4,218 nucleotides of DNA from a virus (Duplodnaviria > Heunggongvirae > Uroviricota > Caudoviricetes). This document shows positions 960 through 4,218 of the stretch, piece after piece. The stretch lies in the IMG/VR virus record IMGVR_UViG_2711768017_000017; one strand, 5' to 3'. How positions within the stretch are numbered: position 1 is the stretch's first letter; every line of letters begins with the position of its first letter. The notes under the pieces were generated by a model. It did not search any database. It was not told where the DNA came from and saw only the letters and a program-made list of their open reading frames with translations. The position numbers and the translations under genes were made by a program.

Positions 960-1147
960 GAGGTTGCCCTGTATTCAGTGTCGCTGATTTGTATTGTCTG
1001 AAGTTGTTTTTACGTTAAGTTGATGCAGATCAATTAATACGATACCTGCGTCATAATTGATTATTTGACGTGGTTTGATGGCGTAGATGCACGTTGTGAC
1101 ATGTAGATGATAATTATTATCATTTTGCGGGTCCTTTCCGGCGATCC

Positions 1148-1180
1148 GACAGGTTACGGGGCGGAAGGCGCGCGGGTTTT
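1148..1180. promoter_or_regulatory. cosN: cosN, the terminase nicking site; predicted 12-nt cohesive-end segment at 1159-1170 (GGGCGGAAGGCG), flanked by lambda-like AGGTTACG and CGCGGGTTTTCGC
   Basis: Flanks match the lambda right-end/left-end junction as I recall it (..GATCCGACAGGTTACG | 12 nt | CGCGGGTTTTCGCTATTTATGA..). The location is 189 bp upstream of the Nu1 ATG, consistent with lambda (Nu1 begins at nucleotide 191 of the genome). Confidence 0.75.
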
Positions 1181-1210
1181 CGCTATTTATGACAATTTTC
1201 CGGTTTAAGG

Positions 1211-1321
1211 CGTTTCCGTTCTTCTTCGCCGTAACCTAATGTTTTTATTTAAAACACCCCCTGAAAAGAAAGGAAACGACAGGTGCTGAAAACGGGCTTT
1301 TTGGCCTCTGTCGTTTCCTTT
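1211..1321. promoter_or_regulatory. cosB: cosB, the terminase small-subunit binding region: three copies of a CGTTTCC-core element (R3 1211-1228; R2 1269-1282; R1 1308-1321) with an AT-rich candidate IHF site (I1) between R3 and R2
   Basis: Directly visible: cgtttccgttcttcttcg at 1211-1228; aaaggaaacgacag at 1269-1282 and ctgtcgtttccttt at 1308-1321 are a perfect 14-bp inverted repeat separated by 25 bp. The AT-rich tract 1229-1268 (taatgtttttatttaaaa) sits where the lambda I1 site lies. This matches the known cosB organisation R3-I1-R2-R1. Confidence 0.8.
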
Positions 1322-1347
1322 CTCTGTTTTTGTCCGTGGAATGAACA

Positions 1348-1867
1348 ATGGAAGTCAACAAAAAGCAGCTGGCTGACATTTTCGGTGCGAGTATCCGTAC
1401 CATTCAGAACTGGCAGGAACAGGGAATGCCCGTTCTGCGAGGCGGTGGCAAGGGTAATGAGGTGCTTTATGACTCTGCCGCCGTTATAAGATGGTATGCC
1501 GAAAGGGATGCTGAAATTGAGAACGAAAAGCTGCGCCGGGAAGTTGAAGAACTGCGGCAGGCCAGCGAGACAGATCTCCAGCCAGGGACTATTGAGTACG
1601 AACGCCATCGACTTACGCGTGCGCAGGCCGACGCACAGGAGCTGAAAAATGCCAGAGACTCCGCTGAAGTGGTGGAAACCGCATTCTGTACTTTCGTGCT
1701 GTCGCGGATCGCAGGTGAAATTGCCAGTATTCTCGACGGGATCCCCCTGTCGGTGCAGCGGCGTTTTCCGGAACTGGAAAACCGACATGTTGATTTCCTG
1801 AAACGGGATATCATCAAAGCCATGAACAAAGCAGCCGCGCTGGATGAACTGATACCGGGGTTGCTGA

Positions 1868-1893
<26 letters not shown>
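1348..1893 (+). CDS. nu1: Terminase small subunit gpNu1 (181 aa), lambda-type
   Basis: The translation MEVNKKQLADIFGASIRTIQNWQEQGMPVLRGGG... matches lambda gpNu1 along its length as I recall it, including the N-terminal winged helix-turn-helix that binds the cosB R elements. Lies immediately downstream of cosB; stop TAA at 1891-1893. Confidence 0.97.

Positions 1894-4218
<2,325 letters not shown>

Follow-up and report, generated by a model that had tools for sequence, protein, structure and literature searches.

A Widely Shared Alternative Cohesive-End Sequence at the cos Site of a Lambda-Type Prophage

The Locus and Its Genes

The stretch of DNA analysed here, called the window throughout (4,218 nucleotides), spans the junction between the right and left ends of a lambda-type prophage, and its features are collected in Table 1. 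The visible part of the prophage covers 4.2 kb, in which Nu1, A and W have open frames, as does the start of B, and every subsite of cos is present, with a run of N lying within A. The reference phage DE3 is a derivative of lambda, and its record annotates a 12-bp "cos site". Nu1 of the window is identical to that of DE3/lambda at 178 of 181 residues and starts at +190, as in DE3, and the first 327 residues of gpA match those of the DE3 protein at 325 positions.

The cosB of the window has the complex architecture, with R3, an inverted R2 and R1 at fixed distances from cosN; three substitutions relative to DE3 are found in the R3–R2 interval, which holds the IHF site I1. R3 is a TerS-binding site and the reported anchor of TerL during bottom-strand nicking. 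Its assignment to bp 50–65 and the definition of cosN as 16 bp with 10 symmetric bp were taken from the literature, as was the naming of R2 and R1 (PMC9026076), and the nick positions given in Table 1 are those predicted for the window by homology to lambda (PMC9026076). cosQ serves as the packaging-termination signal (PMC4669245, PMC9026076).

Table 1. Features of the window (bp numbering starts at the cohesive-end 12-mer's first base)
Feature	Position	Strand	Remarks
DUF1398 protein gene	258–683	−	Upstream of cos; E = 3e-43
DUF3950/YlcI-YnfO-type protein gene	726–959	−	Upstream of cos; E = 2e-20
cosQ heptamer GGGTCCT	1129–1135	+	bp −30 to −24; sequence and spacing as in DE3/lambda
16-bp cosN (CG + 12-mer + CG)	1157–1172	+	Expected nicks at 1158/1159 (top) and 1170/1171 (bottom)
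Flanking dinucleotides CG / CG	1157–1158, 1171–1172	+	bp −2 to −1 and 13 to 14; kept relative to DE3
Left half GGGCGG	1159–1164	+	bp 1–6; as in lambda
Right half AAGGCG, variant segment	1165–1170	+	bp 7–12; CGACCT in lambda
cosB R3 AGGCGTTTCCGTTCTT	1208–1223	+	bp 50–65; sequence and distance as in DE3/lambda
cosB R2, inverted, AGAAAGGAAACGACAG	1267–1282	−	bp 109–124; exact reverse complement of R1, placed as in DE3
cosB R1 CTGTCGTTTCCTTTCT	1308–1323	+	bp 150–165; identical to DE3, equal spacing
Nu1, terminase small subunit	1348–1893	+	181 aa; Pfam PF07471 Phage_Nu1, E = 2.4e-101
A, terminase large subunit	1868–3904	+	Frame open; N-run 3342–3477
W	3901–4107	+	PF02831
B, first codons only	3' end of window	+	Open

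The region of DE3 that matches the DUF1398 and DUF3950 genes carries lambdap78- and lambdap79-like ORFs instead. The run of N in A spans 136 nt and preserves the frame, giving 678 codons instead of 641. Its lambda counterpart is presumably 25 nt long, and 9 residues of gpA occupy its place in phage PhiR46_1, which is described below; either the run reflects masking or a gap in the assembly, or it conceals an in-frame difference of 111 nt. Between cosN and R3 there is an A-to-C change at window position 1193 (cos bp 35), where the window reads ATGACAATTTTCC and lambda ATGAAAATTTTCC. This change is common to 11 of 89 carriers of the variant 12-mer, and in its flank context it was found in none of the 5,426 complete E. 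coli genomes searched, the best match being 98.9%.

The Cohesive-End Segment

The 12-mer at positions 1159–1170 is GGGCGGAAGGCG, and it occurs once in the window. At the aligned position, all four reference phages, DE3, PhiR63_1, 2H10 and the Stx1a phage Stx1_9793, carry GGGCGGCGACCT, which the literature gives as the canonical cosN allele common to lambda, 21, 434 and phi80. The lambda sequence to which the initial annotation had compared the window was correct, as the cos annotation of DE3 and three more phages agree with it. Seven of the 12 bases are identical between the window and canonical lambda cosN, the mismatches being at bp 7, 8, 9, 10 and 12. The claim of differences at five of the final six bases was thus confirmed by alignment to four phages, and the conservation reported for the immediate flanks was also borne out, with AGGTTACG and CGCGGGTTTTCGC unchanged relative to the same four. 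It had further been proposed that the substitutions sit where the staggered nicks are made. This stands for the bottom strand, where they abut the expected nick between bp 12 and 13, but not for the top strand, where the expected nick and its neighbours are unaltered. Apart from these five bases, the window and lambda have in common cosQ, the flanking CG dinucleotides, GGGCGG, the sequence and spacing of R3, R2 and R1, and near-identical Nu1 and gpA.

The clustering of the five mismatches is not due to chance. Outside the 6-mer, 17 of 285 aligned positions differ from DE3, 7 from PhiR63_1 and 6 from 2H10, and because this background divergence makes five or more mismatches in 6 bp improbable (about 1e-3 for DE3, 1.5e-5 for PhiR63_1 and 7e-6 for 2H10, for any 6-bp interval of the 291-bp alignment), the cluster must be regarded as real. 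An origin of AAGGCG by inversion of CGACCT was considered and rejected, since the reverse complement, AGGTCG, matches it at only 4 of 6 positions.

The rotational symmetry of the 16-bp cosN comprises 8 bp in the window versus 10 in lambda, the symmetric pairs 3/10 and 6/7 having been lost and 4/9 gained. The G+C content of the overhang is 10 of 12 in both, with predicted duplex melting temperatures of 46.3 °C for the variant and 47.8 °C for lambda. A literature search for the exact string GGGCGGAAGGCG returned no relevant paper, its sole match being an unrelated plant paper.

Variation of the Right Half in Lambda-Like Phages

Differences at bp 7–12 are described as "common" among lambda-like phages, with cosN differing from that of lambda at bp 9 and 12 in N15 and in phiD326, and at bp 8, 9 and 11 in Gifsy-1 (Feiss et al. 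2015, PMC4669245). Many right-half mutations had little or no phenotype, whereas the symmetric left-half changes were severe, G2C lowering the yield about 10-fold where C11G had no effect; cosQ and the CG dinucleotides flanking cosN were conserved (PMC4669245). Yields were equal on cosN-lambda and cosN-N15 for the lambda and N15-hybrid terminases, with no cosN specificity, and Feiss et al. concluded that bp 7–12 are free of selection because R3-bound TerS positions TerL for bottom-strand nicking (PMC4669245). A 2-bp mismatch between cohesive ends cost about 4-fold in yield, and mismatched ends were found to segregate in chromosomes packaged between unlike cos sites (Feiss et al., PMC4669245). 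The published tolerance data deal with alleles of one to three changes, in contrast to the five of the window, and in these bp 7 and bp 10 were never altered.

N15 and phiD326 resemble the window in that their cosN varies naturally in the right half, keeps the left half of lambda and has a G at bp 12. N15 begins with the 12 nt GGGCGGCGTCCG, which confirms its changes at bp 9 and 12; against these two, the window has five, with bp 7, 8 and 10 also altered and a G rather than the T of N15 at bp 9, so that the two alleles differ from each other at bp 7, 8, 9 and 10. In N15 cosB is simple, containing one R site, and TerL is 64.9% identical to that of lambda (PMC4669245), whereas the window combines its allele with the complete cosB of lambda and a terminase nearly identical to that phage's. 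The Salmonella phage Gifsy-1 is also a right-half variant at multiple positions, in a host genus other than that of the window. The CAGCGT-type allele met in the scans, which the published variant positions suggest is that of Gifsy-1, shares A8 and G9 with the window and has different bases at bp 7, 10, 11 and 12.

The spectrum of right halves was surveyed in three scans of IMG/VR in which the left half GGGCGG and the conserved flank motifs were held fixed, the canonical right half was excluded and all matches were returned. Every allele scan kept the left half as GGGCGG, and the asymmetry between the halves is therefore known from the literature and not from the scans. At least 19 right-half alleles were found. 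AAGGCG was the most frequent non-lambda right half (82 contigs; the canonical tally in IMG/VR is not comparable), followed by the N15-type CGTCCG (53 contigs), CAGCGG (22), CGACCG (12), CAGACT (7), AGACCT (5), CAGACG and CAGGCG (4 each), and about ten rarer alleles in 1–3 contigs each. Putative stepping stones, CAACCT, CAGACT, CAGGCT, CAGGCG and AAGGCT, are among the IMG/VR alleles, and a stepwise path from lambda to AAGGCG through such intermediates is possible. A scan of one genome per species gave mostly chance matches in G+C-rich genomes and was filtered on lambda-like flanks, after which there were 19 lambda right halves, 5 of the N15 type, 2 of CAGACT and 1 each of CAGCGT, CGGCCT and AAGGCG, the last in Escherichia sp. 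E1V33.

Some other records deserve mention. Among 120 lambda-type cos sites listed at random, the sole left-half variant was at about position 5197 on the minus strand of IMGVR_UViG_2778261513_000005 (L089), which reads GGGCGACGACCT and has a G-to-A change at bp 6. The cos sequences in Raphidiopsis brookii D9 (ACYB01000015.1, L213) and in a 3,062-bp contig of Aeromicrobium sp. PE09-221 (L220) equal lambda at the 50 flank positions scored, and in these cyanobacterial and actinobacterial records contamination with lambda or a cosmid vector is the most likely source. Lambda-type cos or Nu1 sequence is also present in a Bacillus thuringiensis plasmid record and in a "Campylobacter phage" record.

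Distribution of the Allele

The searches were made with queries short enough that each 28-nt megablast seed covers bp 7–12. Of 5,426 complete E. coli genomes, 155 have the variant 12-mer, at 166 sites in all, and 4,101 have the canonical 12-mer, at 7,413 sites. Divided by replicon, there were 150 variant versus 7,394 canonical sites on chromosomes and 16 versus 19 on plasmids, a plasmid enrichment of the variant with an odds ratio of 41.5 (p = 4e-18). In PLSDB, 23 of the 40 plasmid records with a lambda-type cos have the variant, mostly replicons of 45–47 kb. It was also found in 31 metagenome contigs, human-gut and food samples among them, in addition to the IMG/VR contigs counted above, and in two of 50,697 phage records, PhiR46_1 and YDC107_1. 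The variant 12-mer is a discrete and widely shared natural allele, and not a private lesion of the window.

PhiR46_1 (PV340565, 46,290 bp) is a deposited complete phage genome with an annotated telL, a region for replication and immunity in the style of N15, and a complete set of lambda-type head and tail genes. Its gpA is identical to that of the window at 627 of 632 readable residues. The host in its GenBank record is ECOR13, although its name suggests an origin in ECOR46. The PhiR phages were reportedly described by Brenes and Laub in 2025. In a later paper that cites this description, the PhiR panel served for plaque assays, and it is on this and on the GenBank record that PhiR46_1 is taken to be a propagated phage. 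PhiR46_1 and related E. coli phage-plasmids of about 46 kb (e.g., pRHBSTW-00124_4) are identical to the window in the 12-mer and at bp 13–34 and have a lambda-type cosB; they differ in the unrelated sequence upstream of cosQ and in Nu1 (168 of 181 residues identical). PhiR46_1 is a linear plasmid prophage with telL, whereas the window belongs to an integrated lambda-type prophage. Like that of N15, the allele of the window is associated with linear (telomere) plasmid prophages, among which it is strongly enriched.

Two variant cos copies (L282 and L290) lie on one metagenome-derived viral contig of 56,122 bp, IMGVR_UViG_3300045988_113976, which may be an over-unit-length assembly (concatemer or over-circularised) of a phage-plasmid of about 46 kb, or may hold tandem elements.

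The range of alleles and their distribution bear on the proposal that diversifying selection acts on the right half because it serves as a cohesive-end compatibility tag, with many alleles kept by selection rather than drift. This we consider unlikely, and we hold the same doubt about the role that it gives to the tag, in which unlike overhangs would stop hybrid chromosomes from cyclizing and so reduce cross-packaging among co-resident prophages, phage-plasmids and satellites. The 19 or more right halves in IMG/VR and the enrichment of one of them in a single lifestyle are in keeping with such selection, as is the roughly 4-fold cost of a 2-bp mismatch (PMC4669245), compared with which five mismatches should be far worse. 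However, shared ancestry of the phage-plasmid lineage explains the plasmid enrichment equally well, and the published interpretation is that bp 7–12 are simply not selected (PMC4669245). The proposal addresses the persistence of the allele and is compatible with the allele being functional. If it were true, a chromosome running from a lambda cos to an AAGGCG cos would have 5 of 12 overhang positions mismatched and would fail to cyclize, and the telomere phage-plasmid lineage, along with those prophages that acquired the allele, would be reproductively separate from the canonical lambda-type prophages, which some three in four complete E. coli genomes contain.

Terminase Types and Carriers

The flanks of the allele are diverse, with 24 left-flank haplotypes (31 bp, −31 to −1) and 11 right-flank haplotypes (60 bp) among the 89 carriers, and three types of TerS/cosB were seen with it. 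Type one, as in the window, has the lambda Nu1 and lambda R sites. In type two (18 contigs), TerS departs from Nu1 in its N-terminal DNA-binding region and matches it over the C-terminal two thirds, beginning near residue 75, and cosB has three R-like repeats containing CATGTCGG; this module may resemble that of phage 21. Type three (4 contigs) has a TerS that is a distant match to PF07471 (E = 1e-24). The isolated phage IdasGreatGrand, which has the canonical cosN, encodes a TerS 99.4% identical to that of type two, and the lambda-type and type-two modules are each found with both the variant and the canonical 12-mer. The variant allele is therefore independent of terminase type.

This independence weighs on the suggestion, made in the initial annotation, that the 12-mer has a distinct cos specificity. 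On that reading the variant would have its own cosN cleavage specificity and a co-adapted TerL, and lambda terminase would not cut it, nor its terminase cut lambda. Five of six right-half bases are changed, that at bp 12 beside the bottom-strand nick included, and the loss of the symmetric pairs 3/10 and 6/7 also fits. Yet in a per-residue comparison no position of Nu1 (14 carriers against 72 canonical loci) or of gpA (11 against 34) segregates with the allele, gpA residues 9, 21 and 466 showing partial linkage only. Moreover, the gpA of the window is about 99% identical to that of lambda and its Nu1 nearly so, two of the three TerS/cosB types occur with both alleles, and in published work the lambda and N15-hybrid terminases had no cosN specificity (PMC4669245). 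A distinct specificity is thus unsupported, and we regard it as very unlikely.

Nu1 looks intact in 14 of the 15 carrier loci long enough to be judged and gpA in 11 of 13, and one of the two gpA exceptions is the window itself, on account of its run of N.

Two carriers are visibly damaged. L011 (IMGVR_UViG_3300039332_000035, positions 2055–3337, minus strand) has the variant cosN with a left context like that of the window (DUF3950, DUF1398). To the right of cosN lies a type-two cosB and then a gpA ORF without its first 55 or so codons, and there is no TerS gene. An IS insertion or a satellite-type cos was considered for this right flank and rejected, as the sequence is type-two TerS/cosB joined to a truncated A, and L011 is a recombinant or degraded prophage. 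L137 (positions 26173–38474, E. coli APEC E14033, NZ_CP126948) is a lambda-type prophage adjoining ybhC, in which an insert of about 11 kb divides the major capsid gene into two halves, both of them pseudogenes. The insert has genes for an integrase, an HTH regulator, an Icd-like protein, a primase and an SSB, as well as for a major capsid protein and a head-decoration protein of its own, and it looks like a capsid-forming satellite (PICI-type) within the capsid gene of the prophage.

The initial annotation also raised a packaging-impaired cryptic prophage, in which the 12-mer would be a lesion of a decaying, packaging-dead element, its substitutions gathered after selection on cos had ended. 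Many lambda-type cos sites in E. coli do sit in defective prophages, L137 and L011 are damaged carriers, and the prophage of the window is visible over 4.2 kb only. Decay, however, would scatter changes, whereas here a single 6-mer holds five of them, with cosQ, the left half, R3, R2 and R1 all equal to lambda. Independent contexts numbering in the hundreds, with three types of TerS among them, share the identical allele, both terminase genes have open frames in the window as in most carriers, and the deposited phage PhiR46_1, with its closely similar gpA, has the allele as well. A dead site would hardly be expected to turn up in identical form at 166 sites in E. coli, on 23 plasmids and in 82 IMG/VR and 31 metagenome contigs. 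The suggestion of impairment finds no support in these data, and a decayed site is in our view very unlikely.

A Probably Working Alternative Allele

As judged from sequence comparison, the cos of the window is most likely a working lambda-type site with a natural alternative cohesive-end allele, GGGCGGAAGGCG. What is established directly is its sequence, how it is conserved and distributed, and that it does not depend on the type of terminase. The course of packaging at such a site would be that of lambda. By homology, dimers of Nu1 would bind R3, R2 and R1 of cosB, and Nu1 bound at R3 would place gpA for the bottom-strand nick at bp 12/13, whatever the sequence of the right half. A second gpA would nick the top strand beside the conserved CG/GGGCGG left half. 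We infer from this that the variant cos would be cleaved and that virions would carry 12-nt 5' overhangs of GGGCGGAAGGCG, with ends complementary to each other and about as stable as those of lambda. The published genetics suggest that the drop in symmetry from 10 to 8 bp is tolerated.

The allele is probably old, and lambda-like prophages and telomere phage-plasmids would have exchanged it by recombination, with segregation of mismatched cohesive ends possibly also spreading it. The sharp restriction of the changes to the 12-mer fits either ordinary recombination in a highly conserved region or such mismatched-end segregation.

Some points count against a working site. The five changes exceed the one to three of the published alleles, the symmetry is lower, some carriers (L137, L011) are defective, and the phage records with the allele number two of 50,697. 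None of 78 IMG/VR contigs and none of 31 metagenome contigs with the variant allele starts at bp 1. In IMGVR_UViG_2693429719_000008 (L328, locus positions 1–43) the contig ends 1 nt beyond bp 12, either by coincidence or because the assembly broke off at a physical cos end, and this is weak evidence at best.

The last possibility named in the initial annotation, ordinary non-coding divergence, comes closest of its three readings, but what is found is more specific, being a discrete and widely shared allele of bp 7–12 in a segment reported to be variable and tolerant (PMC4669245). The allele is a common natural variant in the mutation-tolerant half of cosN and most likely functional, with a dead site very unlikely and no distinct terminase specificity supported.

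Implications for Lambda-Type cos Sites

There are practical consequences for the identification of cos sites. Programs and annotation pipelines that match the lambda 12-mer literally will miss about 2% of the lambda-type cos sites on E. coli chromosomes and will overlook roughly half of those of phage-plasmids.

The principle that the right half of cosN tolerates change was already established by the Feiss laboratory, and no new question is opened by the variant described here. It does place an allele with five of six right-half bases altered beside a terminase about 99% identical to that of lambda. If the site is functional, this would extend the view that the anchoring of TerS at R3, and not the local sequence, positions the bottom-strand nick.
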